The notes under the pieces were generated by a model. The model searched no databases, had not been told where the DNA came from, and worked only from the letters and a program-made list of their open reading frames with translations. A DNA stretch of 64,000 nucleotides from Candidatus Bathyarchaeia archaeon. Lineage in GTDB: Archaea > Thermoproteota > Bathyarchaeia > 40CM-2-53-6. The translations under genes and the position numbers were made by a program. Where the stretch lies: positions 1,312,001 through 1,376,000 of the forward strand of contig JBEKFP010000001.1 in the NCBI GenBank assembly GCA_050013255.1, given 5' to 3'. Of this stretch, positions 6,071 to 29,002 are shown piece by piece (position 1 is the stretch's first letter; each line of letters begins with the position of its first letter).

Positions 6071-6077
6071 TGGCACA

Positions 6078-7346
6078 TTACTCCAAAAGAAATGCCCGTA
6101 TCATATCCCAGTAATGAGAATGCTCAAGAGTACTGAAAACATCCTCGCATGAAGGTGGACTATCTGATGCATTTGGTGGGGTTAATGGCCCTCTACTCAT
6201 ATTCTTGGCTTGGATCGTTTCTGGCATGTCAGCGAGAAACCGTTTGTTCAAGGCATAGTATGCTGTGACTATGAAGATTCCGACGAAAGTGAGCAGCACA
6301 CCGACGACTGCGAACAAGGTAGTCCATGGAATTTGAGTATAAACGTTCATGAATATTGAAGGCCTGAGCCCTGAATTCCCCGATAGAACCAAGTAGGGGT
6401 ACCTGCCGCCATCATTCATGAATTCCCCAATCATCGCCACAACGATTGCTACTGGGCCGAGAACAAGCGCATACTTCGGCACAACCCCGTATCCTCGCTT
6501 AATCCTCTTCCAGACGTTGACGGATGCGAGGACGAGTAATGTGATTAGTGATAGTTTCAACGCGAAGAGTGGGGCTACATCAAATGTTGACCCTGCTTGG
6601 CCAAGGATATTGGAATATAGCAATGGTGCTCTGCTGTTTAGGTTGATTAGGTAGGATGGCCCCAAAACTCCCTGCACCGCAAGGAACAGTACACCGTGCC
6701 AGAGACCTATCCAAGCGAATTTCGGGTTCACGTTACCCTTAATCGTGAAGAAGGATGCGACAATGAAACCGCCTATCGATAAGGCGCCAAACCACGTATG
6801 CAATACCAACCAGGGATACAGCGGGTTGAAGAACACGGCTATCCGTGCAATATCTTTCATTCCTTGCATAGCCATTGCTAATGCGTAAGGGTAAGTTAGC
6901 TCAGCGAAAATGTACCTGAAACCGAAAGGAACGCCAAACCCCGAAACAGCCATCACGAACCCGACTAGAGTATGCAGCCCTGGCCGAATCTTCCCCCAAG
7001 TATACCAGAATAGGGCGATTGTTGGGATCCGAATCAGTATGGCTGAGAGAGCGATGAGGATGGGCAAGAAGATTATGTCCGTCGCTGTAGCCATCAGCGT
7101 AGGAAAGAAGCCGGCCAATACCACCGTTATGATCGTGCCCCAGACCCCGCTGAAAAGCTCGTGGATTATCAGAATCTTGAAGACTTTCCTCGACATGACC
7201 TCGAGGTCTGGCTTGTGTCGGAACCAGGCGAGGAACCTTGCCATGGCGGAGATCCAGCCTGTTCCAAGGGTGATGTTGACTAGTATGATGTGAACGATTA
7301 CGGCGACGCCGAGGATCGTGAAGCCGAGTATCTCGGTGCTCGCCAG
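6078..7346 (-). CDS. Cytochrome bd-family second subunit, CydA-like (CydA')
   Basis: Multi-TM protein with GEFMNDGGRYPY motif; the frame is open upstream of the ORF-track start to a CTG at 7346, adding a His-containing helix (VHIILV). Confidence 0.75.
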   Translation of the reverse strand: MASTEILGFTILGVAVIVHIILVNITLGTGWISAMARFLAWFRHKPDLEVMSRKVFKILIIHELFSGVWGTIITVVLAGFFPTLMATATDIIFLPILIALSAILIRIPTIALFWYTWGKIRPGLHTLVGFVMAVSGFGVPFGFRYIFAELTYPYALAMAMQGMKDIARIAVFFNPLYPWLVLHTWFGALSIGGFIVASFFTIKGNVNPKFAWIGLWHGVLFLAVQGVLGPSYLINLNSRAPLLYSNILGQAGSTFDVAPLFALKLSLITLLVLASVNVWKRIKRGYGVVPKYALVLGPVAIVVAMIGEFMNDGGRYPYLVLSGNSGLRPSIFMNVYTQIPWTTLFAVVGVLLTFVGIFIVTAYYALNKRFLADMPETIQAKNMSRGPLTPPNASDSPPSCEDVFSTLEHSHYWDMIRAFLLE

Positions 7347-8895: not shown

Positions 8896-9138
8896 TGAAG
8901 TTGCAACCACGACCGTCAAGCCTCGATTACAGAAACACTGGACCAACAAACCGGTCTGCTGAATTTTAAGGAACGGTATGTAGAGTAATGCTGGCTGTCA
9001 AAAAAGACGAGCGTCGTAAAGAATTGAGCTGCGTTCCTGTCAGCTCAATAATGTGAACTCTCGCATGTTTTCAGCGGTGAAAACCCGTCGAGATAGCTTA
9101 TCACGATGTTCGATTGAGCAAGCACGCAAGGGTCTGCC

Positions 9139-10263
9139 GTGAACTTCTACATCACATTGACGACCAACTGCAACCTCAGATGCAGCTACTGCTACGGCAA
9201 GTCCTGCGAGGATTTTGGGTGCGACTTCCATGGGCTCGCAGTCGACTATTCGTTGCCCAGTGAAGTTGCCTATGACAGCGAGGTGCTGCGGAATTTTCTG
9301 CAGAAAGATCGAGAGGCCGCCCTGATTTTCTACGGAGGTGAGCCCCTGCTCCAGTTGAGCAAACTGCGAGAGATCATGAACACCGTCCAAGCTGACAAGT
9401 TCATCATCCAGACCAATGGCCTTTTGCTAGACAGGTTGGAGCCTGGGTACGTGAACAGATTCCGATCGATCTTCGTATCACTAGACGGCGAAGAAGCGTT
9501 GACGGACCATTATAGAGGGAAGGGGGTCTACAGGCGAGTTGCACGCAACCTGAGGCTGATCCGCGAGAACGGGTTTAAAGGCGAGGTAGTAGCGCGAATG
9601 ACCATCGGAGAAGAGACTGAGATCGATACACAAGTCCAGGCGTTACTTAACGGCGCAGAGCTGCCGATATCATCAGTCCATTGGCAGCTTGATGCGCTCT
9701 TTTGGCAGAATGACTATTCGAAGCGACAGTTCTCAGAGTGGGCTAGGACGAGTTACAACCCGCGCCTTAGGAGACTCATCGACCTTTGGGTGCAGCGCAT
9801 GAAGGATACCGGCGAGGTACTGCGGCTCTATCCGCTTCTCGGAGTCATGCAGTCTCTGCTTCTCGGCGAATCGAACCACCTACGTTGCGGCGCCGGTTGG
9901 ATTGTCTTCAACATCCAGACTGACGGGAACATAACACCCTGCCCCGTCATGGCGGGAATGAAAGACTTCTACCTAGGAAACATTCGCGAAACGCATCCCG
10001 AGAGTCTGAGAAACGCCGAGTTCGTATCCGAGCCTTGCACGCAATGCCAAGCACTTCCGATCTGCGGTGGGCGTTGCCTTTACGCGAATGTCACTAAACT
10101 TTGGGGGAACGAAGGATTCAGGCAAGTCTGCGCAACCGTCACCGACATGATAAACGCATTGCAGGAGGCACTACCCGAAGTAAGGTCCCTCATAGATAAT
10201 GGAAGAGTTCGGCTAGATTCTTTTGACTACATGAAATACAACGGATGCGAAATAATACCCTAA
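9139..10263 (+). CDS. Radical SAM/SPASM domain protein
   Basis: CNLRCSYC, YGGEP, SPASM cysteines CGAG...PC...CxxC..CGGRC. Confidence 0.92.
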   Translation: MNFYITLTTNCNLRCSYCYGKSCEDFGCDFHGLAVDYSLPSEVAYDSEVLRNFLQKDREAALIFYGGEPLLQLSKLREIMNTVQADKFIIQTNGLLLDRLEPGYVNRFRSIFVSLDGEEALTDHYRGKGVYRRVARNLRLIRENGFKGEVVARMTIGEETEIDTQVQALLNGAELPISSVHWQLDALFWQNDYSKRQFSEWARTSYNPRLRRLIDLWVQRMKDTGEVLRLYPLLGVMQSLLLGESNHLRCGAGWIVFNIQTDGNITPCPVMAGMKDFYLGNIRETHPESLRNAEFVSEPCTQCQALPICGGRCLYANVTKLWGNEGFRQVCATVTDMINALQEALPEVRSLIDNGRVRLDSFDYMKYNGCEIIP

Positions 10264-10503
10264 TTCCCACAGAATCATTCCTCAAGGGGCCTTAGCCAAT
10301 TCGAGTACCCAAAGACGAGTCGGAAATGAGGAAATCGGCTGCGCTGACCCTCGAAGCCATGTTAGAGTATTGCCGTCGACTGTGAAACCAGGCCAGGTTA
10401 ACGCGCTGATTCTCTTCTAAGGTAAGAGTAAAATCGAAGTCTTCGCTCTCTACTTTCCCACCGTGTCTGACTGTTTGAATGTGTTGTGTCCGGGGGTGAC
10501 TGT

Positions 10504-10668: not shown

Positions 10669-11319
10669 AACCCGCTAGCAGCTTGAAAGGTGCGTCTTCT
10701 CTCCCTTTCTCTTTCTTTCTCCAGCTCCAATTGAACATCTAGTCTCGGTAGTTGTCTAGCAACCACTTGATTTCGCTTGCACCAATCGGTAGCGGAGCAA
10801 TTGGAACAGTCAATGTCGGCACCGATGCGTAGTGAATGCGGATAATTTGTTTCTTGGACAGAATGCGTGAGAACTTGGCTACGTTCGAGAGGCAGCCGCC
10901 ACATCAGAGGCCGGAAGCTTTGAAGACGTGGTAGTTCAGTTCAATATGAATAAACGTAAGACGGGCATTCTTCGCTGATAGGTCGTGACTTGATATGAAT
11001 TATGTTAGACTTAGATTCCTGGGAAGATAGAAGCGGTCCTAACACAGAGCCAAACCCCCGACTCTTTATATTGACTAACCAAGGAACCTCGATCTTCTTA
11101 ACAATCTCAGTCTGCCCTAATCACATTGCAACGTATTGGACGTGTCTGAGTTTCTCGCCTTCGGGGCGCCAGCCAAGCTGTCTGTCCACGCGGAGCATAA
11201 CCGTCATGCTACTGGCACTTCTCGCTGTCTGGATAGCAAGGATTGGTGTAACTCGCAGGAAACATTTCCACACATGAAGGAACGCCTGTTCCAGTTAACC
11301 TCGTATCCGATGTGCCTGC

Positions 11320-11387
11320 GCTCAAATGATGCGGGCACCCGAATCTGAACAGGGTTATATGTACCGGTAAATTGGGTCAGAATCCCC
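11320..11387 (-). repeat. Degenerate target core plus leader-like repeat (copy 1)
   Basis: gctcaaatgatgcg + ggcacccgaatctgaacagggttatatgtaccggtaaattgggtcagaatcccc, similar to 34556-34624. Confidence 0.7.
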
Positions 11388-11462
11388 TTCACCATCTCTG
11401 AATTAGATATCTAGTTATTTGGATCCAGAGATGCCGTACGATGACTTGATTGTGTGGACGAC

Positions 11463-11837
11463 CTATTGGCCCCAGTCCATTAGAATGAGCTCTTTGATTT
11501 CGGAGAAGACTAGCGCCATAACCACGCCAGCCAGTATTGGGCCATACCAGAAGCGCCAGTAAAGGGCAATAAAAGTGAACGGCATGAGGCCCATCCCAAA
11601 CACAAAGTGATGAATATGCGTGTTCGGGACATCCTTCTGTCCGCCGATCGCCTGGGAGGCCTTGCCAAACACGGACTTGGGCTGAGACTTCAACGGCCTT
11701 CCGACCTTGATCTTCAAGTCCTTGAAATCTAAGTATAACCGGAGTTTGACGGAGTCGGCAAGACTGCGAACTAGTATGTAGGATACCCAACCTGACATAA
11801 GGAACAATTCGAGATCGGTAAACCTAGGAATATCCAA
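11463..11837 (-). CDS. Small membrane protein
   Basis: 124 aa with hydrophobic segments and a HIHH motif. Confidence 0.65.
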   Translation of the reverse strand: MDIPRFTDLELFLMSGWVSYILVRSLADSVKLRLYLDFKDLKIKVGRPLKSQPKSVFGKASQAIGGQKDVPNTHIHHFVFGMGLMPFTFIALYWRFWYGPILAGVVMALVFSEIKELILMDWGQ

Positions 11838-12013
11838 ACCAGTTCACCGTTCAACATCCATTTTGATGTGGGTTTGTTCATGAGTCAAATGGCGTATTAA
11901 GGCGTTGGATGAAAATTCCACCAAGTTGGTGATGTGGTATCCTTGGTGCGCACCACGGGTACCGCCCCAAAAAAAGGAAAAACCGTCTGTGGATTGTTGT
12001 TAGTTGGTTCGTA

Positions 12014-12047
12014 GTGTGTGTGGGTCTAATGGTGCGCGCACACACAC
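12014..12047 (-). repeat. Junction site: (TG)n - ggtctaatggtgcg (12023-12036) - (CA)n
   Basis: Core identical to 18259-18272 and 34556-34569. Confidence 0.95.
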
Positions 12048-12246
12048 GAAAACGACGCCCAACCTGACGGTTCAATTTCTCTTGTCCGCACGATCCTCCC
12101 CTTCCCGTTACGTCACCCGCCGAGTTGGAAAAGCTGCTTTCAAAACTGTTGCCAAGCAAACGATCACTCCTTCTTAGTTCCTCAATTCCAAATAGCGGAA
12201 GCAAGCCTGGGAATTGTTATAAAGACAGCGGGCTGTCTGCGTCTGC

Positions 12247-12732
12247 ATGACTCAACGAGTCGAACTCGAAAATTCGGACGACAACCTTTGCTTCGGATGT
12301 GGCCCACAGAATCCGATGGGGCTTAAGCTAAGATTCTTCATGGAAGGCGATCGTGTCATCACCGAATGCATCCCTACAAAGTGGTGGTCTGGTCAGCCCG
12401 GTGTCGTCAACCCTGGAATTGTATACGCAGTGCTCGTCGATCTGATCATCTGGACAGCCGGCGGAATTCTTCACCGAGTTCCCCTAATGCCTAAGACGAT
12501 TGACATGAAGCTTGGAGATGTCAGTACAAGACGCCCTATATCGGGAATAGGCTGGATCGTCAAGCGCGAGGGGCCCATGGCCCAGATCAGGGCTGAACTT
12601 AAGCAAGATGGGATGGTTAGGGCTTTGCTTGAAATGGAGACCAGGTCCGTAACTCGGGCGGAATATCAGAAGGCAAGGCCCATGGTGGAAATCCCAGCAT
12701 CACTCACAGGATTCTTTGAGGAAGAGTCGTAG
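12247..12732 (+). CDS. PaaI-family hotdog-fold thioesterase
   Basis: CFGCGPQNPMGL motif, G-x-PGVVNPG. Confidence 0.85.
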   Translation: MTQRVELENSDDNLCFGCGPQNPMGLKLRFFMEGDRVITECIPTKWWSGQPGVVNPGIVYAVLVDLIIWTAGGILHRVPLMPKTIDMKLGDVSTRRPISGIGWIVKREGPMAQIRAELKQDGMVRALLEMETRSVTRAEYQKARPMVEIPASLTGFFEEES

Positions 12733-12850
12733 AGTCTTCAACGTCACGAGCGATAACGATGCAAGCCCCCTAACTAAGTACGTTTTTCATTTTCTGTCAA
12801 CTACGTCTCCAAAAGGCAGTTTGCCTGAGCTTAGCACGTCTCTTTCATTT

Positions 12851-12884
12851 GTGTGTGTGGTATAGCTGGTGCGCACACACACAC
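12851..12884 (-). repeat. Junction site: (TG)n - gtatagctggtgcg (12860-12873) - (CA)n
   Basis: Read directly from the sequence. Confidence 0.9.
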
Positions 12885-12899
12885 AAAATGTTGCTAGGC

Positions 12900-13727
12900 T
12901 TAGTAGAATGGTCCAGTAACCCGTGGTCTAACCTGAGTCATCGCCAGGCAAACCAGGTATAACGCGAAGTTTGCGCTAAGACGAATAAAGAAAAATGCAG
13001 TATCAAAATTAGCAGACTGCACAAGCAAGAATGCGACCAAAGAGGTCATCAACGGGACCAACGCACTGTAAAATACGTAGGCCAACGCAAGCAAGACTAA
13101 GTTTCTCGCAGCATACCATCTCCCCAGAAACCGCAACAGCAGAATCGCTGAAGCCAGCTGAAGGAATGCTAAGATAGGAACAAGACCCACCCATAACACA
13201 GTGTCGGAAAAAGTCGTCTGACCGAAAACTGCATCCGCGAAAAGAAGGTTCGTTGAACTAACCACGAGAGCAAGCGCTAACGAGAATAAGACGACCAGCA
13301 ACGTTTTGTGATCATACCTATCCCAGAGAGACCATACACTCGCAACAAGAGCATAGGCGGAAAAGCAACCTGCCAGAACACCAATCCATGTGCTGGTTCC
13401 TGATGCCGAGAATAATGCGGGGGGTTGGAGGAGTTGCAGATCCCCAAGAGCAGTAACGGCGGTCGTGATTGTATAGCCGAATATCGCAAGAGAGAAGAAT
13501 ATCAAAACTCGACCAATGAAGTTCCTTCTTCCACCAAACATCCGAGACGCCCGCCACCCAACAATCCCCGCAACAACCGTTTCCAGTCCTGCTGGTAGTA
13601 GACGTAGGTCAGATAACGCGGGCGGCAAGACAAGAATCAGAACTAGTGTGAGTACGAATAAACCCGTAATCGCTATAGCGTATTTGTTGAATTCAAACTT
13701 CATTGGATTTCCTAACTTAGAGTTCAT
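12900..13727 (-). CDS. Multi-pass membrane protein, possibly a sensor partner of the adjacent KaiC-like ATPase
   Basis: About 7-8 hydrophobic helices; overlaps the stop codon of the upstream ATPase. Confidence 0.7.
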   Translation of the reverse strand: MNSKLGNPMKFEFNKYAIAITGLFVLTLVLILVLPPALSDLRLLPAGLETVVAGIVGWRASRMFGGRRNFIGRVLIFFSLAIFGYTITTAVTALGDLQLLQPPALFSASGTSTWIGVLAGCFSAYALVASVWSLWDRYDHKTLLVVLFSLALALVVSSTNLLFADAVFGQTTFSDTVLWVGLVPILAFLQLASAILLLRFLGRWYAARNLVLLALAYVFYSALVPLMTSLVAFLLVQSANFDTAFFFIRLSANFALYLVCLAMTQVRPRVTGPFY

Positions 13728-14470
13728 CCTTTCGTCACCTCAATCCCGGTATTCGTTACCGAATATGCAACCGTCGTTCTCGGCGTTCCCAGCATGCCCT
13801 CGACCACCAGCTTTCCTTCAGCGTGCAGATTGACGAGGTTGTCTACGCTGGCTTTGATGATGTTCTCTGATTGTGGGTCGATCGAACCCTGGACGAGGGT
13901 GACGAGGACCCCTACAGCCCCCGCCTTCTTCATCTTCGAGCTATATTCCCTGAGAATCTTCACCACAAGCATCGGAGGGTTGTAGATGAAGAGGGGTGTG
14001 AGTGAATCCCAGATTGCTCGAAATCTGACATTGTCCTTAGCGAAGGATGACAATACCTCATTGAGACTCAACATGAGATCGGTTGGATTTGCTAGAGATA
14101 CAATTTTGAGTGAAGCGTCCTTGATAGAGGATGACGACGTGACGGGCGTCATTGAAATGACTTGGATGCCTCCCTGCTTCAACGCCTCCTGGATAGACCA
14201 ATTGAACCCTGACATGGCGCGGGCAAGTTCCTCCGTTCCATAGTCTGTGGTTACCACGACACATGCTTCATTCGACCTGATGGACTCGGCGAGGAAGTGA
14301 TACGCAAAAACCGACTTCCCAGCCTTAGGAGGCCCGTACACCATCGTTACCGTGCTCTCAGGAATGCCTCCCGAGGTAACAGCGTCGAGGCTCCCGATTC
14401 CAGAGCTTATTCTCCTCAACGCTGAAGAAACCGTACTAATCAACCAGCAGTGGGACGAATTGTAGAGCAC
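13724..14470 (-). CDS. KaiC/RAD55-family RecA-like ATPase (intact Walker A)
   Basis: SSGIGSLD, GPPKAGKS, IWDS Walker B; true start probably downstream of 14470. Confidence 0.88.
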   Translation of the reverse strand: MLYNSSHCWLISTVSSALRRISSGIGSLDAVTSGGIPESTVTMVYGPPKAGKSVFAYHFLAESIRSNEACVVVTTDYGTEELARAMSGFNWSIQEALKQGGIQVISMTPVTSSSSIKDASLKIVSLANPTDLMLSLNEVLSSFAKDNVRFRAIWDSLTPLFIYNPPMLVVKILREYSSKMKKAGAVGVLVTLVQGSIDPQSENIIKASVDNLVNLHAEGKLVVEGMLGTPRTTVAYSVTNTGIEVTKG

Positions 14471-14710
14471 AAGCGCTATTATGACTTTTACCGTTGGTCT
14501 GAAAAACGATGTCGGGGGAGACGATCCCCGCGAAGATAATCGCGAGTGCGAATCAAACGCTATCCGAGTTCAGGAGTATCGAAACTGCTTGCGTCCACCT
14601 TGAGTTTGCGTGGCAACAAATCACAGTTACGACTGCCAAAGTGGCGCGCACACACATTATCGAAAAACTCTTGTCTAACCGTGCACGTATACTCACCTCA
14701 GTCTTCCTTC

Positions 14711-17305
14711 ATGAAGACTTCTCGGAAATGGACCGCTGCGCTAATCATAATTGTATTGATTGTGGGTATTGTAGTCGCGACCACGTATCTCACGCGTCGA
14801 CCAGCACCTTCAATTTCAGTTGCGCCAACAACCTTCGTCACTGAACAGGGAACAGCGATAACGTTCACCGTATTCGGAGTTGAGTCTAACGGAATGGCGA
14901 CAGTCTATTTTGGTGATGGCCACGAAGCGAACACAACCTCCACCGTATCCTACGCTTACCCTAATCCAGGTCGGTATCTGGTGGCGGCTCAGGAGTTCGT
15001 TAACGGTCAACCTGTGTCCTCAACGTTCAACGCCCTGCAAACCATTCAGGTCACACCGCGGGTCAGCGAATCCCTTGCCCCGTTGATTTCTGTGCCTGCA
15101 GTAGCCTTCGACATTGCCAGGAACCCTTCTGCTCCAGTTGTTCGGGTAGGTGATAACGTAATCCTGTACGGTGGCTTCCTTCAACCACCAACTGGAACCA
15201 ACATGACCATCACCCGGTACGAGTGGGACTTTGGTAACGGAGCCACCAAAACCGTTCCCGCGAACAGGACCTCATTCAACCCTGCCAATAACCCGACAAC
15301 AACGTACACTCAAGCCGGCCTATACCCGGTTACATTGACGCTGGTAACTGAAAATTCAACAAGCATGGCAACATACCGGACTTCGATCGAGCAGACAGTT
15401 GCGGTTGGTTCCGGATCTCAGCCTTATACTGTGTTCTTGTATGCAGGTATCGTGCCGAACCCATCCATCATAAACGTGGCTGAAAACTGGGCCGGCGGCC
15501 CATTCTCCTTCGACCCTCAGATAGATGCTGAGGCTAACGGCGTCGAAATTGAACTTAACATATTCAGCACTCTACTCATGTACAATGGTTCATCCACTAC
15601 CCAATTCATCCCAGTGGCTGCAGCTCAAGTTCCATCCGTGGCTAACGGAGGTATATCGTCGGACTACACGAGCTACAGGTTCCAAATCAGAACCGGCCTG
15701 AAATTCTCGAATGGTGACCCGCTTACAGCATACGATGTTTGGTTCTCGATGGTAAGGGACATGCTGTTCGTTGGCGGCAGTCCAACAACTCAAGGGTGGA
15801 TTCTGGCCCAATACCTCATTCCGGGAGCATCCGCAGGCGTACCCGTCATGACCGTTCCCAACGATACAGCCGACTTCAACGCAATCTTGAACGCGTTGAC
15901 CTACAGCAACTCATCAAACACAGTAACCTTCAGGCTTATGCGCCCAACAGCATCGCAACTGTTCTTTACGTCACTTGTTCTTTACGGCGCTAGCATCGTT
16001 GACGCCACTTGGTTGAATGGGGTAGGCGCTGGGATAACGTTCACGCCTGCCGGCTTCTACGCTTACCAGAACCAAGGCAATCAGGGAAGCTACAATTTGA
16101 AGGCTCAGTGGACTCCGGTCGCTTCAGGCCCCTACATGATTCAGAGCTACGCTCCAGGGCAGTCAGTTACACTCGTTTCGAATCCTGGATTCCCAGGAGT
16201 CCCAGGCATTCCCGTCGTGAACAACACGGTGGTGATTCAATGGGTCAACGATCCTGAAACGGCATATAACCTGTTCACGAGTGGGCAGGCCGACATAGTC
16301 TCAGGTCTACCGACGGACTACCTTGCACTCATACCAAAGCAAATTGCAAACGGAAAAGCGGCCATGTATCAAACGCCACCACTTAATTGCAACGCTTTCG
16401 ATTTCAATCTTGACATCAATGTAACCAACATGAAGACTGTTTTCGGACCGCAGTACCACGTTCCCCCGGACTATTTCGCTAACCTTGACGTGAGGGAGGC
16501 GTTCGCTTACGCCTTCAACTACACCAACTACGTTGACGAAATATTAGGAAACCGAAAGTACGGGATAGATTTCGGAAGCAGTTATGCAGGGGTCATTGTA
16601 CCGGGCCTACCAGACTACGTACCGCCAAGCCAATTGCAGAATGTTCCCACATACGACCTGGCAAAAGCCAAGCAACTCTTGCAGCAATCAGGCGAATACG
16701 GGACCTCGATCAACATTCCGGTAGGCAACTGGGCCGGTGACACTAACAGTTTCGCCGGAGCGCAGATGTGGGCTGCTGCCCTAAACTCGATTGACCCGAA
16801 CATAGTAATGACCCCTGTCTACATTAGAAACGGTAACATGGGCGTTCCCGGCCAGAATCCGATTCCAATCATGGAGGCAACGTGGGGGGCGGATTACCCT
16901 TATCCGTCGGACTTCGTCGATGCATTTTACAAACAGGGAGGCTATTACCCGGCTCCGAACAGCTGGGCTGTGAACCAATTCAATTTGACAGGCCATGCTC
17001 AGCAGGCTACGATGTTCGCCCAGATGAATTCATTAATCCAGATAGCAGACTCAACAACAAACGCCACCTTGGCAGCTCAGGATTACAAGGCGGCGGAGCA
17101 AATAGCGATCAACCTCTACATGTACGTTTACACAGTCGACCCCAACTATTTCTGGGTCGCTCAGCCATACATGAATGGGTACCAGGGGCAGATCTCGTAC
17201 GAAGAGAATCCGATGCTCGGAGGCTACCTATTGGGAGTGTACTTTTGGTGGGTTAAGACCTGCGGCTCCGTCCAAGCTTGTTCCGGCCGAAACGTAGGCC
17301 CCTAG
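14711..17305 (+). CDS. ABC transporter substrate-binding protein (family 5) with N-terminal PKD domains
   Basis: N-terminal TM anchor; YFGDG and WDFGNG PKD motifs; KFSNGDPLTAYDV and SGPY; start placed at ATG 14711. Confidence 0.88.
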   Translation: MKTSRKWTAALIIIVLIVGIVVATTYLTRRPAPSISVAPTTFVTEQGTAITFTVFGVESNGMATVYFGDGHEANTTSTVSYAYPNPGRYLVAAQEFVNGQPVSSTFNALQTIQVTPRVSESLAPLISVPAVAFDIARNPSAPVVRVGDNVILYGGFLQPPTGTNMTITRYEWDFGNGATKTVPANRTSFNPANNPTTTYTQAGLYPVTLTLVTENSTSMATYRTSIEQTVAVGSGSQPYTVFLYAGIVPNPSIINVAENWAGGPFSFDPQIDAEANGVEIELNIFSTLLMYNGSSTTQFIPVAAAQVPSVANGGISSDYTSYRFQIRTGLKFSNGDPLTAYDVWFSMVRDMLFVGGSPTTQGWILAQYLIPGASAGVPVMTVPNDTADFNAILNALTYSNSSNTVTFRLMRPTASQLFFTSLVLYGASIVDATWLNGVGAGITFTPAGFYAYQNQGNQGSYNLKAQWTPVASGPYMIQSYAPGQSVTLVSNPGFPGVPGIPVVNNTVVIQWVNDPETAYNLFTSGQADIVSGLPTDYLALIPKQIANGKAAMYQTPPLNCNAFDFNLDINVTNMKTVFGPQYHVPPDYFANLDVREAFAYAFNYTNYVDEILGNRKYGIDFGSSYAGVIVPGLPDYVPPSQLQNVPTYDLAKAKQLLQQSGEYGTSINIPVGNWAGDTNSFAGAQMWAAALNSIDPNIVMTPVYIRNGNMGVPGQNPIPIMEATWGADYPYPSDFVDAFYKQGGYYPAPNSWAVNQFNLTGHAQQATMFAQMNSLIQIADSTTNATLAAQDYKAAEQIAINLYMYVYTVDPNYFWVAQPYMNGYQGQISYEENPMLGGYLLGVYFWWVKTCGSVQACSGRNVGP

Positions 17306-17396
17306 TAAGAGAACTTATTGCTTGAGCGACTGATGAGTCGTTCATTCTTCGCTCAGACTTCGATTTTCGTGTGCGTATTCTATGGCGTCGTAGTGG

Positions 17397-17472
17397 GCGG
17401 GCGTCGTAATTTGAACCGTCGTACGTCGTCGTTTGGAAAAGTGTGTGTGCGCACCAGCCTACCCACACACAC
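17397..17472 (+). repeat. End/leader linker module plus junction (TG)n - cgcaccagcctacc (17450-17463) - (CA)n
   Basis: 17397-17449 is the exact reverse complement of 43412-43464 (53 bp). Confidence 0.92.
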
Positions 17473-17500
17473 AGAACGAAGGGAAAGATAGACAAACCGC

Positions 17501-18202
17501 CTACTCTTCGAGCGTGACTTCGAAATTGTCTCCGACTCTGAGTGCGTGCCAGTGTCCGTCGTAGTCCACGCCTCTCATACTCCTTATCCTGATCAGATTT
17601 CTAGCAGGGTTACTCGCTTCATCAAGTTTGACATCAATGATGCCGTCTACGGCGGCTTCAAAGTTCCTGTATACCCAATTGCTGTGAAGATTGGTGATGA
17701 TACCTTCGATTGTCGTCGATTGCGTCATCGGGCTACTGGCGAAACCTCTGGTGAGAGCGTACTCGACCCATGCTTTTTCATCATTGAACCTGGCCATATT
17801 TGAGAAATTATCCATTATTCTCAAGTATTCGGGTCGTGGAGGGCCTTCCATGAAAGACCGCATCATTTCAATGCTCATGTCGGCCACCTTCAACGAATCT
17901 ACGCTGAGTTTTTCTTTGGATTTCCTTCCTAAAGTACACGTGTACCAATCCCAGATTCTTAGCCTATCGTTCCGTTCGAGTTCCTCGACATTCAATCCAA
18001 GCCGTTTGAGATTGGAGCGTACCGAGACCGGCGGTTGACCACATATCGTGCAACTGGCAACCCCTCCTGACTTTATCCATCCCGCCGTGATCGTTAACAC
18101 GACACTGTACCACAATGATGCAGGATCATATTCCACCAGTATGTTATATCCGGGCGGTACAGGTCCCTTAGTCAAGTCTTCGATTAACGGAATCCTCGGC
18201 AA
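17501..18202 (-). CDS. KaiC/RAD55-like protein with degenerate Walker A
   Basis: EYDPAS at the P-loop position, DGII, RIRSMRG; paralog of 44401-45102. Confidence 0.8.
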   Translation of the reverse strand: MPRIPLIEDLTKGPVPPGYNILVEYDPASLWYSVVLTITAGWIKSGGVASCTICGQPPVSVRSNLKRLGLNVEELERNDRLRIWDWYTCTLGRKSKEKLSVDSLKVADMSIEMMRSFMEGPPRPEYLRIMDNFSNMARFNDEKAWVEYALTRGFASSPMTQSTTIEGIITNLHSNWVYRNFEAAVDGIIDVKLDEASNPARNLIRIRSMRGVDYDGHWHALRVGDNFEVTLEE

Positions 18203-18258
18203 TCAGAACACACGAGAGTCCTCTGTTCTAGCAGATTTGTAGTTTTCGTGTGTGTGTG

Positions 18259-18272
18259 GGTCTAATGGTGCG
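18259..18272 (-). repeat. Left target-site duplication of the Cas1 element (ggtctaatggtgcg)
   Basis: Identical 14-mer at 34556-34569 in the same orientation. Confidence 0.95.
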
Positions 18273-18405
18273 CACACACACACACACTTTGAAACGGTTG
18301 GAGTAGGTATTTGTGGTTAGGGGAAGTGTCGCCTAACAAGCCCTCCGGCCGGATGCACGGAATCCGACTCCCGAAAGATCCCTCTCCAGACCCGGCCGCA
18401 TGTGT
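18273..18405 (+). repeat. Left terminal inverted repeat
   Basis: cacac..tttgaaacggttgg..gttagggga..cctaacaa..cggaatccg..acccggccgcatgtgt; about 80% identical to the reverse complement of 34424-34555 by manual alignment. Confidence 0.92.
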
Positions 18406-18474
18406 CATTTGGCAGAAATCCAGCCGGAACCGGACTTTGCGCACTAATGGAACCAATAGGACGGAAGAATCTTC

Positions 18475-18545
18475 AGTTCAAATTTGGTCGTCCGCACCAT
18501 TGGTACCATCACACTAAACGAACGACAAACATTGGTTCGATTACT
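18475..18545 (+). repeat. Internal tRNA-3'-like target site plus degenerate end module
   Basis: agttcaaat-N10-gcacca, core cgcaccattggtac (18493-18506), followed by catcacactaaacgaacgac. Confidence 0.7.
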
Positions 18546-18553
18546 ACATCAAG

Positions 18554-19363
18554 TCAACGCTGTGTTTGCGCTCGCTTGCCCCTCCACCGGTGGTAAAGCG
18601 AGACGCATGCAGTGATGACGACTGAGTAACCGAGCAATTGTGAAACTGTTTTGCCAGTCGTGTTGTATAAGAAATAATGGCACGACAAGTAGATGGACTG
18701 CAAGTCAACGAAGTTTGTAGCATTAAGTGAAATATCATCGAAATACACTTTTCCACCTTCGGCGCTCTCCAACATAATGCGATTTATGTGAGGGTCAAAG
18801 AAATCTGGAAGATACCTTTCCATCAGTTTTGATATATCCACCGAAATATGTACCCATGAGTTCTCGGGCTCGCGATTGAACTGCAAGTAAATGCCGCCGA
18901 TATCTACGCCCGGATTTGGTTCGAAAACTGCTGCTAGGTCTTCAGTGTTATCGGGCGTAACAGTAATGTCGACATAATATGTTGGACCATTTGTAGTTGG
19001 CAGAAAATAGAGATGAAAAAGCGCCTGTGGTTCTTTCCCTCCTCCACTCGCATTCAAGAGAGTGTAGAAGCCTAACTGCATGCTAGGGAAAATGGATACG
19101 GGATCGAGTTTCTGAAGAAAGCCCACGCCTCCTCCTGTCAAACGTAGACTGTGCGACCCAGTTCTGGAAACTGTACGCACTATGTCAACTCCACCACGGG
19201 CTAAAGGAGGCGGCCCGAGTTCCCAGCCCTTCATTCCATCCTCAAAACCTCCGTTTACCACCAAGTCTGTAGTCGAGGTTTTGCTTGCATAAATCGTAAA
19301 GAATGTTCCCAATAGCAACAGAATGATCATGAAGATCAGTATCATTCTGCTATGCTGAGTCAT
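18554..19363 (-). CDS. Membrane-anchored protein with a carbohydrate-binding-module-like domain
   Basis: N- and C-terminal TM helices; LVVNGGFE and VYFDDISL motifs. Confidence 0.65.
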   Translation of the reverse strand: MTQHSRMILIFMIILLLLGTFFTIYASKTSTTDLVVNGGFEDGMKGWELGPPPLARGGVDIVRTVSRTGSHSLRLTGGGVGFLQKLDPVSIFPSMQLGFYTLLNASGGGKEPQALFHLYFLPTTNGPTYYVDITVTPDNTEDLAAVFEPNPGVDIGGIYLQFNREPENSWVHISVDISKLMERYLPDFFDPHINRIMLESAEGGKVYFDDISLNATNFVDLQSIYLSCHYFLYNTTGKTVSQLLGYSVVITACVSLYHRWRGKRAQTQR

Positions 19364-19655
19364 TTAGCAGACCTAGGTAAATGGAGGGCACAGACCCTTC
19401 CGTTTGCAACCGGCAGGCAACTACTGCCGTATGAAGTATGCCTAACGCTCGGTAATAATTCTGGTGCCAATTTCCATCGTAATTGTAGCCCCCACATAAA
19501 TCAAGGACGGTTCAAACCTGCCTTCCCGCACGAAGAGATTCACAGACACTGAAAATTGAACGAACGACGGCGGTTCATGTGAGTCTACTGCTGGAACGAA
19601 AAGAAAATCTAGTATCGCAAGTGATCCCCCCTTCACATTGAAAACGAGTGTGCAT

Positions 19656-21344
19656 CTATCTGTAGATCGCCATGAACGCGTCCTCCGGATGCCTTACGAG
19701 ACTTCTTCTATTGTCTGTTAGCAATCTTGTTGTAGTAGATTCGACGAAATCCGAACTCTTGAAGACATTTTTGTAATCAAAGAAGTTGTTGTGTGCCGTT
19801 GTGTACTCTTCGAAGTATGCATTGATTTCTGGAACCAACAGCAGCCACAATTTGGCTATCGCTGGCTTCAGCCGCAGACCTTGATCCTTGACACAGGCGA
19901 TTGGATCCCGCATAAATTTCATTCCCAATTCATCCTCGTTTAGGACCTTAGCAACGAGGTGAAGAAAGAAGAAATGAGCGAGACCGTAGTTCTGGATTTG
20001 CGGATTGTCAAGGCTCGACATATTGTACAGTATCGTCTTGTAGATTAGATAGGCGAAGTAAATCTTCGCAGCTGTTGTGTGCCTGGAAAAAATGTCGCTG
20101 TACCGTTCTCCGAAAAGTCTAGCCTTCAAGTGCGTATTTTGAGGATTCCCAAGATAAAATGCCTCGATCAGCTGTGCTGCCAAATCTAACTCAATGACGT
20201 CGGAATATCCTGCTTCGGATTCTCCTCTCTTTCTCTTGTAGAGCACATGGTTCCCTGTAAGTTCACTGAACTCGGTTTGGATTGCTTTGTGGACCCTGTC
20301 ATCCGCCTTGAGATCTTGCAACCTTATGGGATTCTGGTTGTTAGTGTAGTATGTAATCTCATTAACGAGCGAAGATGTCTGTTCTAGCCGGATTATTTTC
20401 GCAAGTAAATGCATGTTGTTCGTGATTTTGTTTCTGTTCTCGTAAAGTGCGAGCATTGACTGACAACCGTTGATAACAGAGTAGTTTCCCAAAATCAATG
20501 TTGAACCATTTTGTTCTAAGCTATCGCAGACCAATGTTATCCCATTGTGAAAGAGGAAGAATTTATCGTGCTTGGAGGTGTCTTCGATAGTTTTCTTGAT
20601 GTCTCTGTTCACACGGGTTCTGCCCAAGCCATATCTCACATTTCGGTAGAACAGAGTCTTGTCTTGTATCCCGTTCAGTTTCATAAGCTCGAGTGCGGGG
20701 ATGGCGTAAACCCTTGTGATCATGCCGCCAGGCAAATCATATTGGATCTTGGTGACATTTGTTAACTGTAAAGGAGTTGAACCTGTGGCAATTTCTGTAT
20801 CTGCGAAGTAGGTGTACTCTTTGAAAATATTGGGGAGATCGTGGCCTATCATTGCTCCCTCGTTTATCTTGAGAAATTCTTTAGCATCGATATTGAATAC
20901 TTTGTTCGTTACAAAGTGTGTGTATACAGGATACCCGTCGGAGATTCGTTCGAATACCTTTGTTGCCCTCACTAAGGCTTTCAGTTCCTCACTCGCTGTG
21001 CCACTTAGGAGGGCGTCGATAGTGGTTACGCTATTGAACCATTGCTTGGCTCCTACGAAATTTCTTAGGTCATTGTCGCCTTGGTCCCTTGCGTAATCGG
21101 GTGAAAATTTTGCCTGAAATAAGTGTACTTCTTCTTCATCTTCATCTGCATAGATGCCGTCAATTCCTTTGTCATTGGAGCTATCACACACTGCCGCAAT
21201 CGCATCCTCTTCTTCCAACCTGAAGAAGTTGCGTAGATACCACATAAGAAAAGATGCGCTCTCGGTTCTTCCTTCAGAATAATACCGCTCGACCTCAGTA
21301 CGCATTCTACTGTCAAAGCCTGGTTGGTCCAATCGACAACTCAT
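19656..21344 (-). CDS. AIPR family protein (abortive-infection/restriction-associated)
   Basis: NDKGIDGI..FQAKF nuclease-like motif; NVRYGLG, FFLFHNGITL, INGCQ and TNNQN motifs. Confidence 0.9.
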   Translation of the reverse strand: MSCRLDQPGFDSRMRTEVERYYSEGRTESASFLMWYLRNFFRLEEEDAIAAVCDSSNDKGIDGIYADEDEEEVHLFQAKFSPDYARDQGDNDLRNFVGAKQWFNSVTTIDALLSGTASEELKALVRATKVFERISDGYPVYTHFVTNKVFNIDAKEFLKINEGAMIGHDLPNIFKEYTYFADTEIATGSTPLQLTNVTKIQYDLPGGMITRVYAIPALELMKLNGIQDKTLFYRNVRYGLGRTRVNRDIKKTIEDTSKHDKFFLFHNGITLVCDSLEQNGSTLILGNYSVINGCQSMLALYENRNKITNNMHLLAKIIRLEQTSSLVNEITYYTNNQNPIRLQDLKADDRVHKAIQTEFSELTGNHVLYKRKRGESEAGYSDVIELDLAAQLIEAFYLGNPQNTHLKARLFGERYSDIFSRHTTAAKIYFAYLIYKTILYNMSSLDNPQIQNYGLAHFFFLHLVAKVLNEDELGMKFMRDPIACVKDQGLRLKPAIAKLWLLLVPEINAYFEEYTTAHNNFFDYKNVFKSSDFVESTTTRLLTDNRRSLVRHPEDAFMAIYR

Positions 21345-21416
21345 CTCAGGAAGACGCGGTCTGATGTTTCATTTAGTACTTATGGAGTCGAAAACCAAGG
21401 GCTCCTTGTCGATCCG

Positions 21417-22640
21417 CTAGCCAGTATCTAGATGACCTAACTTCTCTCTAACCTTACGGCGAATCGTAAAAGAACTCCTGCCTCTGGCGTTCTTACGGAG
21501 GTAATGAAGAGTGCTCTTACCAATACCTAGCTCTGTCGCTTCCTTTTGAGTCAGCGAGAGAATTCTACGCCTGACCCCTATACCGTCCGACCTACTCAAA
21601 TCAACAAACGGCTGCGTGAAGTCGAGCAAACTTGCTTTTCCCACCAAGTGCCTGCTTAGCTCTGTAGCTTTGTGCTCGATAATCGTATCCCATTTGAACA
21701 CCTGCCCGTTGTACTTGACGCCGGAATTGAAGCGCTCTCTCAAAACATCAACAAACCTGATTTTCGCCGCCACATCAAAGTGATATCGATAATCGTCCCC
21801 TGTGAAATAGAAGCTTGGCAGATCTAGTATTCCTGACTCGAAAGCTTCGAACACTGAAGTGTCAATAAGCCATCGGAAAGGCTCCTCCAGGTCATAAACA
21901 AGTGACTGTTTGGTCTGATATGCACTGAATTCGTGCAAGAAGCCCGCAGATGGTTCAAGTCCGACAGTATTGATCGCACGTCTGCATTCCCCCTCCAAGA
22001 ATCCATAGCCGTAGTTCAATGCCAAGTTAACTGGATCAGACGCATTGTTCTGGTGGCTGGTAGTCATACGTCCATGAAAATCCAATGATTCTGGCAAAAC
22101 TTTGGCATACGCAAACCAATACTTTGTTGCTACACGTCCCTCAACTGAACGCAAATCCGCAACTGTGCGGGCGATACCAATCCGTGCGATTTCCTTCTTG
22201 GCAAGTTGCATCTCCTTTTCGATGTCGTAACGTTGTGCAAGCCAATCTAGCACCTGAAGACTTCGCGCAATCTTGGCCTGCACAATGCATTTCGCGATTG
22301 CATACTTCTTTGCAGGGTCTGCGCAGGCCCGGAACTGAGCCGCACGCAAATCAGCCTTAATGGGCATTGGCGGGAGAATACTCGAAATCAGGCTTCCGTC
22401 AAAGTTCAGTACGAAAACCGGAATCCGGTTCCGCGACAACCAGTGGAAAGCCTGCAGGGAAACGTATCCGCTATGCCCGTCTATGATTATGCTACTATGC
22501 CGGAACCGGCGCGGCCGGAATATGTACACGGATCCCGTCCGTCCATCTTCCCGGCCATCCGTAACCTCAAGCTCAGACCGGGACCGTAAATTCCGCACCC
22601 GGATCTTCACGCCCCAACCGGATAGGTGGAGTGGATTCAT
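21417..22640 (-). CDS. cas1: Stand-alone Cas1 endonuclease/integrase (casposase-like) with C-terminal HTH
   Basis: VEGRVA (Glu), NASDPVNLALNYGYG, GFLH (His), SLVYDLEEPFR; HTH-like ELGIGKSTLHY; no cas2, other cas genes or CRISPR array nearby. Confidence 0.93.
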   Translation of the reverse strand: MNPLHLSGWGVKIRVRNLRSRSELEVTDGREDGRTGSVYIFRPRRFRHSSIIIDGHSGYVSLQAFHWLSRNRIPVFVLNFDGSLISSILPPMPIKADLRAAQFRACADPAKKYAIAKCIVQAKIARSLQVLDWLAQRYDIEKEMQLAKKEIARIGIARTVADLRSVEGRVATKYWFAYAKVLPESLDFHGRMTTSHQNNASDPVNLALNYGYGFLEGECRRAINTVGLEPSAGFLHEFSAYQTKQSLVYDLEEPFRWLIDTSVFEAFESGILDLPSFYFTGDDYRYHFDVAAKIRFVDVLRERFNSGVKYNGQVFKWDTIIEHKATELSRHLVGKASLLDFTQPFVDLSRSDGIGVRRRILSLTQKEATELGIGKSTLHYLRKNARGRSSFTIRRKVREKLGHLDTG

Positions 22641-23641
22641 CTTTGATCCTCCAGATCAAGAGCGGATAATAATGCGTAGCTGTCTTCGCGAAGCCATCCT
22701 CGGATCTCATTGAAGATGTCCCCGCGTTCTGACCACAGCTTCTCCAACCTATCCAAATCAGCCCAAGGCTTGGCCATATGATTGAACACAATCTTCCGCC
22801 CTACCCCTGTGAGTCGATTGATGTGCTTTGACGCCCCACGCGATAGTCTCCACCACACTTGGAAATCTGCAGATCGAAGGAAATCCAAAACCTCTACAAC
22901 CAACCGCATGTAACGTTTCGCCAGCTCGGGGTTCGACCAAGCCAAATCAATGAGCTCCAATATACTCTGCTTCGATTGCGCGCGAGCTTTGACTGTCGCC
23001 TCCGCGTGGAAGTCAACGAAGTGAGCAAAGGCCTTGAGAATAGCTTCGCGAACAGGTGTTCGAGAAATCATTTCGTCCGCTTCAAGCAAACGCTGCGCCA
23101 GATCGTCTTCAGAAGCCTGCTCAATGTTGAGACCCTTGTGAGATAATTCTCTTAACACTGCGAGAAGTCGATTCTTTCCATCAATTGGTTGCAGAAACAG
23201 GACCAACATTGTCTGCGCCAAGTTTGCGTGTAAGACACAAGTTCTGATCAGTGAGGGAAAGGTCTTCGATTGAAGGATCTTGGGAAAGGCTGCACAAAGA
23301 ATAACACCTTTGTCGGTGAGAGTATAGCTGAACCTTTTGACTCGCTTCTCACTGGTTTCCTGCCTTCGACGAAGTAATCCAAGGTCATGGAGGAGCGGGA
23401 GCACTCTTCGTCTGGTTTCTCCTCCGACCTGATAGTCCTTCACGAGGAGGTAATTGTTGACCTTGCCATTTTCAGCCGCAACCAAAACAACTGCAAGAGT
23501 TGCATGGAGACCCTTCTTGACCATAGGGTCGTAGGCTGGGCTCCTGAAGTTCAGGCTAGGAAACAGCATGAGTAACTCAGGATCTGCCCGAGCCGCATCC
23601 TTCTGCATTCTTCTAAAATCTAGCTGAGCCTTTGTTCCCAT
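22637..23641 (-). CDS. Winged-HTH protein translationally coupled to cas1
   Basis: LHDLGLL...YTLTDKG wHTH wing signature; 4-bp ATGA overlap with cas1. Confidence 0.7.
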   Translation of the reverse strand: MGTKAQLDFRRMQKDAARADPELLMLFPSLNFRSPAYDPMVKKGLHATLAVVLVAAENGKVNNYLLVKDYQVGGETRRRVLPLLHDLGLLRRRQETSEKRVKRFSYTLTDKGVILCAAFPKILQSKTFPSLIRTCVLHANLAQTMLVLFLQPIDGKNRLLAVLRELSHKGLNIEQASEDDLAQRLLEADEMISRTPVREAILKAFAHFVDFHAEATVKARAQSKQSILELIDLAWSNPELAKRYMRLVVEVLDFLRSADFQVWWRLSRGASKHINRLTGVGRKIVFNHMAKPWADLDRLEKLWSERGDIFNEIRGWLREDSYALLSALDLEDQR

Positions 23642-23682
23642 TATACTGTCAGTCTCCTATGCTGTCAGTTGACAGTATACTG
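23642..23682. promoter_or_regulatory. Candidate operator in the divergent promoter region
   Basis: tatactgtca (23642-51) / tgacagtata (23670-79) inverted pair; ctgtca-gt-tgacag and cagtatactg palindromes. Confidence 0.45.
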
Positions 23683-23741
23683 CCCGTACTTCATGACATA
23701 AACTTCGCCTTTTGCTAGACTTCACGTGAGGTCAAGAGTAA

Positions 23742-24110
23742 ATGAAGATGGTTCGATCGTATAGTATGACTGTCAGCAACACATGGTATGACAAAGAGGC
23801 GGGGGGAGCGAAAGAATACGAGTTGCACTTTACCGTCGCAAGACGAGGCAGCATCAAGACAGTTCGTCGAAGGTTAGCCCGTAGAGGAGTTCCATACTTT
23901 CAAAACTACGTCTACGGCCGCGTGAAAAAGTGGATTCCTAGGAAGAATGTCAAAGTCCGCTTCGAGCGCGAGGAACCCGCTGCGAAAAGTGAAGGGAAGA
24001 TCAGCATCGAGGGTCGGAACATGTTGTTCCGGGGGAGGCGATGGTGGGCGTACCCACTCGGCAAGTTGCAGTTGAGCTACGCGAAAAGGAGGCGAAAACG
24101 AGGTGCGTAA
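23742..24110 (+). CDS. Basic hypothetical protein
   Basis: 122 aa, Arg/Lys-rich; overlaps the next ORF. Confidence 0.6.
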   Translation: MKMVRSYSMTVSNTWYDKEAGGAKEYELHFTVARRGSIKTVRRRLARRGVPYFQNYVYGRVKKWIPRKNVKVRFEREEPAAKSEGKISIEGRNMLFRGRRWWAYPLGKLQLSYAKRRRKRGA

Positions 24111-24468
24111 CGTAAACGTCCTAAAGGTCGATAAGGACTGCGTGGTACCGGAGAACTGGATTCAGGATTACATATCGGTAGTTTTGACCGTCTGCAAGTG
24201 GTTCGGAGTTTCGGTCATATCGATCGGGGCTTGCAAGAGTCGCATGAAGGGCCTTCACTTCTACATCGAAATAGCACCATCTGTCGAACCGGAAGTTGCC
24301 AACCGTCTTCAATGGCTCATAGGCGACGACTGCCAGCGCGTGGACTTCAACCGGGCCCGCATAGAATCAGGACTTGATTGTTGGAATAAATTGTTTGAAG
24401 TCGCCGGCAGAAGGTTGCGAACAATCTACGGAACCCAACAGCATTCGCTGAGAAACACCGCGTATTGA
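24103..24468 (+). CDS. Putative minimal AEP-superfamily primase-polymerase catalytic domain
   Basis: hhDxD (LKVDKD), SxxxGhH (SRMKGLHFY) and a distal Asp (GDD) in AEP motif order. Confidence 0.5.
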   Translation: MRNVNVLKVDKDCVVPENWIQDYISVVLTVCKWFGVSVISIGACKSRMKGLHFYIEIAPSVEPEVANRLQWLIGDDCQRVDFNRARIESGLDCWNKLFEVAGRRLRTIYGTQQHSLRNTAY

Positions 24469-24489
24469 CTGACAGGACTAGCGAGTCGT

Positions 24490-27928: not shown

Positions 27929-27932
27929 TCAA

Positions 27933-28999: not shown

Positions 29000-29002
29000 A
29001 AG

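Follow-up and report, generated by a model that had tools for sequence, protein, structure and literature searches.

Layout of the array

The window analysed here is a 64,000-nucleotide stretch from a Candidatus Bathyarchaeia archaeon, whose genome comprises 2.46 Mb in 3 contigs, has 50% G+C and carries intron-rich tRNAs. Our subject is a 6.2-kb region of this window, positions 12037–18258, that lies beside an element encoding a Cas1-type casposase (18273–34555), and which, judged from its sequence, is probably the leader-distal section, without Cas1, of an insertion array of casposon type at one landing pad. We refer to the genome of the window as G000 and to its congeners, 22 of which were compared, by other G numbers; L numbers denote retrieved loci.

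The array is marked out by a 14-nucleotide core, GGTCTAATGGTGCG, which is found as exact copies at 12023–12036, 18259–18272 and 34556–34569 on the forward strand and at 46541–46554 on the reverse strand. Four copies compare with 0.27 expected in the window, and none of 100 shuffles reached four. The spacings of the direct copies, 6,236 and 16,297 bp, define units of 6,222 bp (12037–18258) and 16,283 bp (18273–34555). An earlier note on this DNA had reported the three identical direct copies, which are indeed exact, but had overlooked the inverted copy at 46541 and the other copies in the genome. At 12023, the distal copy, and at 18259 the core has element tips on both sides, a (GT)n run on one and a (CA)n run on the other; the copy at 18259 joins the last cassette of the 6.2-kb region to the Cas1 element and is common to both, as the same note had proposed. 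At 34556 the 3′ side of the core is occupied by AGCGCTCGAATTTGAACCGG... instead of a CA run. This sequence opens the leader (34570–34609, forward strand), the T-loop-like half of the landing pad, which adjoins core copy 3 where the note had placed it.

The outer ends of the 6.2-kb unit are inverted repeats that match at 16 of 17 positions, CGCACACACACGAAAAC at 12037–12053 against CACACACACACGAAAAC, the reverse complement of 18242–18258. Two inner junctions of the same GT run–core–CA run build divide it, at 12851–12884 (GTGTGTGTG / GTATAGCTGGTGCG / CACACACACAC) and at 17441–17474 (GTGTGTGTG / CGCACCAGCCTACC / CACACACACAG). Both the inverted ends and the inner junctions at 12860 and 17450 thus stand as first described. 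The units are not separated by identical direct cores throughout: the outer three are identical, the inner two differ, and one of these is inverted. The core at 12860–12873 (forward strand) is an orphan, present once in this genome and on no pad, and its junction sequence recurs in several congeners (query stretch 6846–6890). The core at 17450–17463, inverted and reading GGTAGGCTGGTGCG on the reverse strand, is likewise single-copy here and acts as a duplication in G004:C45.

To the left of core copy 1, positions 11936–12022 hold a double core, GGTATCCTTGGTGCG / CGCACCACGGGTACC head-to-head, and then a 72-bp fragment that is the right end of another CA-tipped element, terminates in GTGTGTGTG and has a homologue in the cassette at G000:C1:257887–259489, again at its right end. 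Because of these remains, the array extends left past 12023. The fourth core copy, at 46541, is followed by non-element flank (CACCACCACGAAG...). In L062, a metagenome contig of a near relative (Ga0208321_1000179), this flank closes the array of the 34570 leader, and since that leader there heads an array ending at 46541, the 46541 core is the same as the core of the array described here. The 12023 junction is bridged by an independent contig of the Joint Genome Institute (L069, 99.9% identical) and the 12860 and 17450 junctions by Logan contigs; among the contigs listed none bridges the junction between the third cassette, the core and the Cas1 element, which rests on the assembly itself.

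Gene content of the cassettes

Each of the three cassettes, A, B and C, is bounded by (CA)n/(GT)n tips. Cassette A (12037–12859, forward strand, 823 bp) begins with the left tip CGCACACACACGAAAAC, behind which lies a degenerate inward-facing landing pad (~12053–12100), and ends in the right tip ...CATTTGTGTGTGTG. Its open reading frame (ORF; 12247–12732, forward strand) encodes a 161-residue protein whose similarity to a thioesterase-superfamily structure is weak (2prx, E 1.7e-4) and which has what we take to be a CFGCGxxNPxGL-type motif; the label thioesterase-like stands on this one weak Protein Data Bank match and the motif.

Cassette B (12874–17449, 4,576 bp) consists of two modules. Module B1 (12874 to ~14506) encodes a hydrophobic 275-residue membrane protein (12900–13727, reverse strand) and a KaiC protein (13724–14470, reverse strand; PF06745, E 6e-27), and module B2 (~14507–17449) a 919-residue protein with PKD and solute-binding domains (14546–17305, forward strand; SBP_bac_5, E 2e-46 in Pfam). 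The right end of B is an unoccupied pad (17383–17449) that terminates in GTGTGTGTG, and its last part, 17397–17449, is 100% complementary to 43412–43464. Cassette C (17464–18258, reverse strand, 795 bp) holds a single ORF (17501–18202, reverse strand) for a 233-residue protein that is weakly KaiC-like (E 5e-6, slightly below Pfam's cut-off), and its right tip, read inward, is CACACACACACGAAAACTAC. A paralogue of C lies at 44375–45162. The division into thioesterase, membrane protein–KaiC–solute-binding and KaiC-like units given in the earlier note agrees with these assignments, with the matches for A and C being weak.

No Cas1 was found in 12037–18258 by Pfam or tblastn and no PolB domain in the 6.2 kb by Pfam, in keeping with the description of the region as non-autonomous and devoid of a transposase of its own. 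The G+C content of the 6.2 kb, ~0.50, equals that of the genome.

A genome-wide family of cores, tips and landing pads

Sites were counted as related when a sequence of the type NNNNNNN-TGGTGCG lay beside a CA/GT tip and/or a ...AATTTGAACC... leader. There are 88 such core sites in the genome, and GGTCTAATGGTGCG is the commonest of their cores (13 exact copies; 35 copies with at most one mismatch). The ...AATTTGAACC... motif follows TGGTGCG at ~45 sites. The (CA)n-GAAAA(C) type of end belongs to the same family, with GAAAA in 11 of 83 tips and GAAAAC in 5 of 83.

Several sites are clean single insertions. At C2:746093/746718 the order is non-element flank, core, a cassette that reads CACAC...611 bp...GTGTG, the same core and the leader, and C2:285240/287247 and C1:257873/259490 are of the same build. 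As these insertions show core duplication around single cassettes, the 14-mers are read as target duplications, and core plus leader as the landing pad. The earlier interpretation of the 14-mers as target site duplications is upheld in this casposon-type sense, by single-cassette insertions in the genome and in L062; the site in the window has the corresponding feature, a 14-bp direct duplication at a target made up of the duplicated segment with an adjacent leader.

The pads resemble tRNA ends. ARAGORN, also with introns allowed, and Rfam, at gathering thresholds and at E values up to 5, called no tRNA gene at the pads in the window. We discarded the idea that the pads are tRNA genes on these grounds and regard them as look-alikes; only 34610–34638 derives from a real tRNA.

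The Cas1 element as the proposed source of integrase

The element between core copies 2 and 3 has (CA)n tips, the same core on both sides and inverted repeats of ~130 bp that start with a CA run (18273–18405 and 34424–34555). Its cas1 gene (21417–22640, reverse strand; 407 residues, Pfam E 7e-49) has 6opm_A as its best solved relative (E 3.9e-74, full length), which we take to be the Methanosarcina mazei casposase, and its closest public relatives lie in metagenome-assembled genomes labelled Candidatus Bathyarchaeia. The cargo includes an AIPR protein, an N6/N4 methylase, a DndB-like protein and a GHKL-ATPase-like protein; Pfam detected no PolB among the ten largest ORFs. Mean G+C is ~0.47, versus ~0.50 for the genome and the 6.2-kb region.

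A second full-length casposase, 60% identical to the first, is encoded at C3:231179–232381, in an element whose ends are CCGCCCCCGCC (CCG), not CA. Among the congeners, casposases at least 64% identical to that of the window are associated with CA tips, and one in G004 that is 57% identical with (CCG)n tips, so that the two casposases with CCG tips are 57–60% identical to the window Cas1. Since the other full-length casposase has CCG tips, the window Cas1 is the only resident enzyme that fits the CA-tipped cassettes. An autonomous partner with matching ends is therefore present in the same genome, as the only full-length CA-tip casposase of G000.

We propose that the casposase of the neighbouring element, or a relative, would move the CA-tipped cassettes in trans, joining their 3′ CA tips to both strands of the core beside the leader, whereupon gap repair would duplicate the core. 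As only the CA run is common to the cassettes and the Cas1 element, recognition in trans is assumed from work on another casposase: that of Aciduliprofundum boonei needs only the five terminal 3′ residues of its element end (PMC6614799). In M. mazei a mini-casposon engineered to lack Cas1 was mobilised in trans; it inserted into a duplication of the resident casposon and so formed a tandem (PMC10359463).

At G014:C8:20065–22890 the unit around a full-length casposase (67% identical) measures only ~2.8 kb and has CA tips; its flanking cores are inverted and not identical, and it may be a minimal casposon. At G000:C1:39198–40099 the ~200 bp after a GGTCTAATGGTGCG core show 83% identity to the inverted repeat of the Cas1 element, with no cas1 after them and a different right end 0.9 kb on, inside a 4.3-kb composite bracketed by GCTCTAATGGTGCG. 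By its sequence this represents either a solo end of the Cas1 element or a truncated relative.

The cassettes occur apart from one another in relatives

L062 is 96–98% identical to the window over more than 14 kb and has the same leader, occupied by other cassettes. The order there is leader, CGCACCACTGGACC, cassette A, CGCACCACTGGACC, a cassette equivalent to 45177–46540 of the window, CGCACCATTAGACC, and the flank 46555–53072. Cassette A is represented by its gene alone (~667 bp, 98.2% identical to 12183–12792) and has its own perfect 14-bp duplication, while B, C and the Cas1 element are all missing at this leader. The search suggested in the earlier note, for a relative with the 6.2-kb unit directly at the 34570 leader and no Cas1 element, thus had a divided outcome: L062 lacks the Cas1 element there, but of the 6.2-kb unit it has only cassette A.

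The other cassettes also occur independently. Cassette C is found by itself in G019:C10, with limits corresponding exactly to 17464–18258, 84% identical and between two other cores. In G021:C86 the modules of B are swapped, B2 (80% identical) preceding B1 (91% identical), and joined by a degenerate CACGCACGCAAAATG. Four other loci have full-length relatives of A (75–89% DNA identity to the window), and B is never beside A. We did not find the 6.2-kb block as a whole in its own genome, the 22 congeners or 10 metagenome loci holding A. Recurrence as one mobile unit, then, was seen for A alone (L062) and for C alone (G019) and not for the block.

Cassettes are 91–96% identical in species whose core flanks are 70–82% identical, and 11420–11906 and 34610–35612 are 95–96% identical in G004, where core flanks are 76–82% identical. 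Because the cassettes are far more alike than the surrounding chromosome, these values point to exchange of single cassettes between species. Synteny of the left flank ends at ~9010–9126 in every relative, and nothing beyond matches in G016, G018, G019, G014 or G021; in these five genomes no orthologous empty site could be defined for the array as a whole.

Origin of the three-cassette stack

Taken together with the structure of the junctions, these distributions make it likely that at least three small cassettes, none with a casposase, are stacked in the 6.2 kb, and that the region is not one mobile element. The single 6.2-kb non-autonomous element of the earlier note does not hold up against A alone in L062, C alone in G019, B swapped in G021, inner 14-mers that differ (one of them inverted) and a block found nowhere whole.

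How the stack formed is constrained by the inner junctions. Simple one-by-one stacking of A, B and C at this pad is improbable, because the inner cores are foreign and one is inverted, and since no pad in the genome carries these cores they were not made by insertion at this leader. We consider two routes. In one, which we hold to be evenly poised between right and wrong, the mosaic would have been built or reshuffled in place by recombination between the many near-identical junctions; as these are near-palindromes of ~35 bp repeated dozens of times, they are ideal for recombination and for flipping of the 14-nucleotide loop. L062 shows that the cores of a single array need not agree, even where they surround a simple cassette. 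In the other route, a somewhat weaker candidate, the mosaic would have been assembled elsewhere and entered once, via the left tip of A and the right tip of C.

The strongest competing account takes the whole 6.2 kb as one composite non-autonomous transposon, cut out and inserted whole by a casposase through the left tip of A and the right tip of C, ahead of the arrival of the Cas1 element. In its favour, the outer 14-mers agree exactly and are in direct orientation, both outer tips are of the (CA)n-GAAAAC type that is so scarce in this genome, and the inner cores, orphans with one inverted, were not made at this pad. Units with matching outer cores and foreign inner junctions also recur, at C1:37900/42250, C3:222447/228065 and G014:C3 135132/143141. 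It is nevertheless doubtful in our view. No second copy of the block, of the A–B junction or of the B–C junction was found in the genomes and metagenome loci searched, the near relative L062 has A without the rest at this leader, and, as GGTCTAATGGTGCG is the commonest core (13/88), the chance that one of four junctions to the left would match is, by our own estimate, ~1 in 4.

More remote is a derivation of the 6.2 kb from an older autonomous casposon that has decayed to its shell, the outer tips and duplication being original and cas1 and the rest having been lost and replaced by cassettes. The outer duplication and matching outer tips suit it, and there are precedents in G014:C3, where the distal unit still has a broken cas1, and in Methanosarcina tandems in which one copy is inactivated (PMC4779613). 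However, a tblastn search with all ORFs of at least 70 residues from both casposons of the genome found no casposon remnant in 11301–18272, the only match being a KaiC-like one of 51 residues (E 4e-4), and A and C are complete two-tip cassettes, each found alone elsewhere; we judge this origin highly unlikely. Scarcely credible is a reading of the (GT)n–14-mer–(CA)n hairpins as dispersed intergenic palindromes, either like repetitive extragenic palindromic sequences or as terminators, among resident chromosomal genes, with the 14-mer unrelated to transposition: the junctions are near-palindromic and lie in every gap between gene units, the motif is dispersed over 88 sites and the region has the G+C content of its genome, but single cassettes stand between perfect 14-bp direct duplications, beside which lie non-element flank at one end and leader at the other, the flanked genes vary between strains and species with empty sites in related genomes, left-flank synteny stops at ~9010–9126 in every relative, and the Cas1 element ends in the same tips and cores.

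Order of arrival and evidence for rearrangement

Under the stacked-cassette interpretation, a working target would need both core and leader, and because of this need a newcomer would land between the leader and the previous arrival. The model for casposon targets is the same, with leader plus duplicated segment as the target and newcomers predicted to be leader-adjacent (PMC5137440). On this basis the Cas1 element would be the latest arrival and A, B and C older; the 6.2-kb stack behind it probably, not provably, arrived earlier.

Other arrays have the same polarity. In all four arrays with a Cas1 unit, which come from related genomes and do not amount to a statistical test, the intact Cas1 unit is leader-adjacent, and no counter-example was seen. 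G000:C3 (222447/228065/239044) has three copies of GGTATGCTGGTGCG, with a distal 5.6-kb Cas1-less composite and a proximal 11-kb Cas1 unit at the leader; G014:C3 (135132/143141/151770) has three copies of GGTATAGTGGTGCG, with a distal Cas1 fragment interrupted by a stop codon and a proximal intact Cas1; and in G004:C45 a CA-tipped cassette lies distal to a proximal Cas1 element. The low G+C of the Cas1 element and its absence at the L062 leader also fit a late arrival. The claim in the earlier note that the leader-proximal unit is the newest is therefore in accord with the published model and three other arrays as far as order goes, but 'newest' itself was deduced from position.

Several observations weigh against this account of stacking and mobilisation. 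Outside their CA runs, no similarity connects the cassettes to the 130-bp repeats of the Cas1 element. If stacking were simple and polar, all junctions should have identical cores in direct orientation; two of the four depart from this. In L062, cassette A is opposite in orientation to the leader and has different end modules, and both the core and the first 8 nucleotides of the leader differ. Precise excision of casposons is known (PMC10359463), and excision of this kind from L062 would be indistinguishable from that locus never having had the Cas1 element. Twenty peat or wetland metagenome runs contained at least 94% of sampled words of 11900–18400, and four were compared with 15000–34999. 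These four gave no sign of movement, with no credible empty-site joint or allele lacking either unit; the data are Logan contigs, which hide rare variants and break at junction repeats. In the four runs B, C and the Cas1 element were at equal depth (58.6/57.8/56.5 in X4 and 21.3/25.5/21.7 in X16). Finally, the region is, by its sequence, one that has been rearranged more than once, and the order need not equal age.

Candidate empty-site joints in the metagenomes had sides shorter than 31 nucleotides or the depths of other organisms and were counted as cross-matches of other pads. The archaeon is a peat organism of the Bathyarchaeia, and the runs that match the locus come from peat or wetland.

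A 6.4-kb platform (34547–40990), between the outward-facing leaders at 34570 and 40967, is inverted in L062 (1059–7924) relative to the flank 46555–53072. A single inversion linking G000 and L062 was considered and set aside, as the orientation of A and its end modules misfit one event.

Comparison with known systems

Tandem casposons with one shared duplication have been described in Methanosarcina sp. 2.H.T.1A and 2.H.A.1B.4 (family 2; Krupovic et al. 2016, PMC4779613). As there, the neighbours in the window sit at one site-specific target with a single shared duplication, one of them is non-autonomous, and the target is related to a tRNA 3′ end. Unlike there, where both are full casposons and one has a broken PolB, the partner here has no casposon gene; three or four cargo cassettes make it up as a mosaic, which has only the (CA)n tip in common with the Cas1 element, and the latter itself lacks PolB by Pfam. 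The M. mazei Go1 mini-casposon (PMC10359463) is similar in being a Cas1-less element in tandem at the duplication of a resident element, with the movement in trans that was shown there being what we would expect here. That one is artificial and has the full 31-bp inverted repeats of its helper, whereas the cassettes of this genome are natural, numerous (88 related sites) and have minimal ends.

The target of AciBoo-C1 in A. boonei resembles the pads of this genome in having a duplicated segment of 14–15 bp with an adjacent T-loop-like leader, and in that system, too, polar tandem insertion was predicted and the last few 3′ residues of the element suffice (PMC5137440, PMC6614799). There, however, the target is one real tRNA-Pro gene, while here there are dozens of tRNA-end look-alike pads, many of which sit on cassette ends. 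Like integron arrays and Tn7-type islands at attTn7, the locus has promoter-poor accessory genes stacked in order at one recognised site, and the cassettes are exchanged between species; unlike in those systems, the enzyme is a Cas1-type integrase and not a tyrosine recombinase or TnsABC, each insertion is accompanied by a 14-bp duplication, and inverted CA tips take the place of attC. In a literature search we found no published description of natural Cas1-less cassettes with minimal CA tips stacked behind an autonomous element. Tandem casposons, the leader-plus-repeat target and the artificial mini-casposon are thus known already; what would be new is natural cassettes without casposon genes.

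A bolder possibility, which we regard as rather improbable, is that a Cas1-type integrase runs a natural integron-like system, in which small cassettes of accessory genes, many with their own pad and requiring no more than (CA)n tips, would form polar stacks at tRNA-end mimics and multi-cassette composites would be movable. Were that so, the inner 14-mers at 12860 and 17450 would be former addresses of the cassettes, carried on a target-bearing intermediate, and the array would preserve where each cassette came from in addition to the order of arrival. A target-bearing intermediate has been proposed for MetMaz-C1 (PMC10359463).

The stacked-cassette interpretation also touches on clustered regularly interspaced short palindromic repeats (CRISPR), for whose spacer-acquisition machinery casposons are thought to be ancestral. 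The missing link is a natural Cas1 integrase that repeatedly adds unrelated DNA beside a leader and duplicates a short repeat each time, and the locus would be a natural illustration of the way in which CRISPR-like repeat–insert–repeat arrays can grow. The analogy has a limit: because cores change, flip and recombine, array order is not a clean record. L062 and the window offer a testable pair of states at one leader, a single cassette beside it in the former and the Cas1 element with a three-cassette stack behind it in the latter.

Neighbouring features

Immediately beyond the leader lies the tRNA 3′ fragment (34610–34638, forward strand), which comprises T arm, acceptor and CCA and is opposite in orientation to the pad. 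An intact multi-intron tRNA in G004:C42 (L033), presumably Leu-like by our own reading, matches the fragment at 91% identity with its 3′ end and downstream flank, and an intact copy in the genome of the window lies 1 Mb away (C1:310117–310427). In G004 the intact tRNA is directly upstream of the same nitroreductase gene (96% identical). The nitroreductase unit (34610–35612) is flanked by direct repeats ATATRTACCGGTAAATTGGGGTC at 34593–34615 and 35590–35612, and its counterpart in G004, with 96% identity, lies on a contig that has no relation to the flanks of the window.

A second array (~40916–46601) is absent from G018, G004 and G021, such that array and leader constitute an insertion relative to these three congeners (L038, G018:C2 8465–8534; L034, G004:C28). 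When its ends, GGTTCTGACCCC... and ...GGTGAAGGGGA, are joined, they recreate the unbroken sequence seen at 11370–11400. This would suit the opening of a pad-bearing circle within a T-loop-like hairpin, and the pad itself would then have a second form of mobility.

On the left side of the window, a radical S-adenosylmethionine/SPASM gene (9131–10296) is 90–95% identical in G019, G014 and G010, on contigs without the conserved left flank, and no CA/GT junction is visible at its borders. The stretches 10898–11015 and 6000–6086 recur at 86–99% identity in several places in the genome and in congeners. Towards the right end, a thiamine pyrophosphate riboswitch lies at 59218–59332 on the forward strand (Rfam RF00059, 71 bits).

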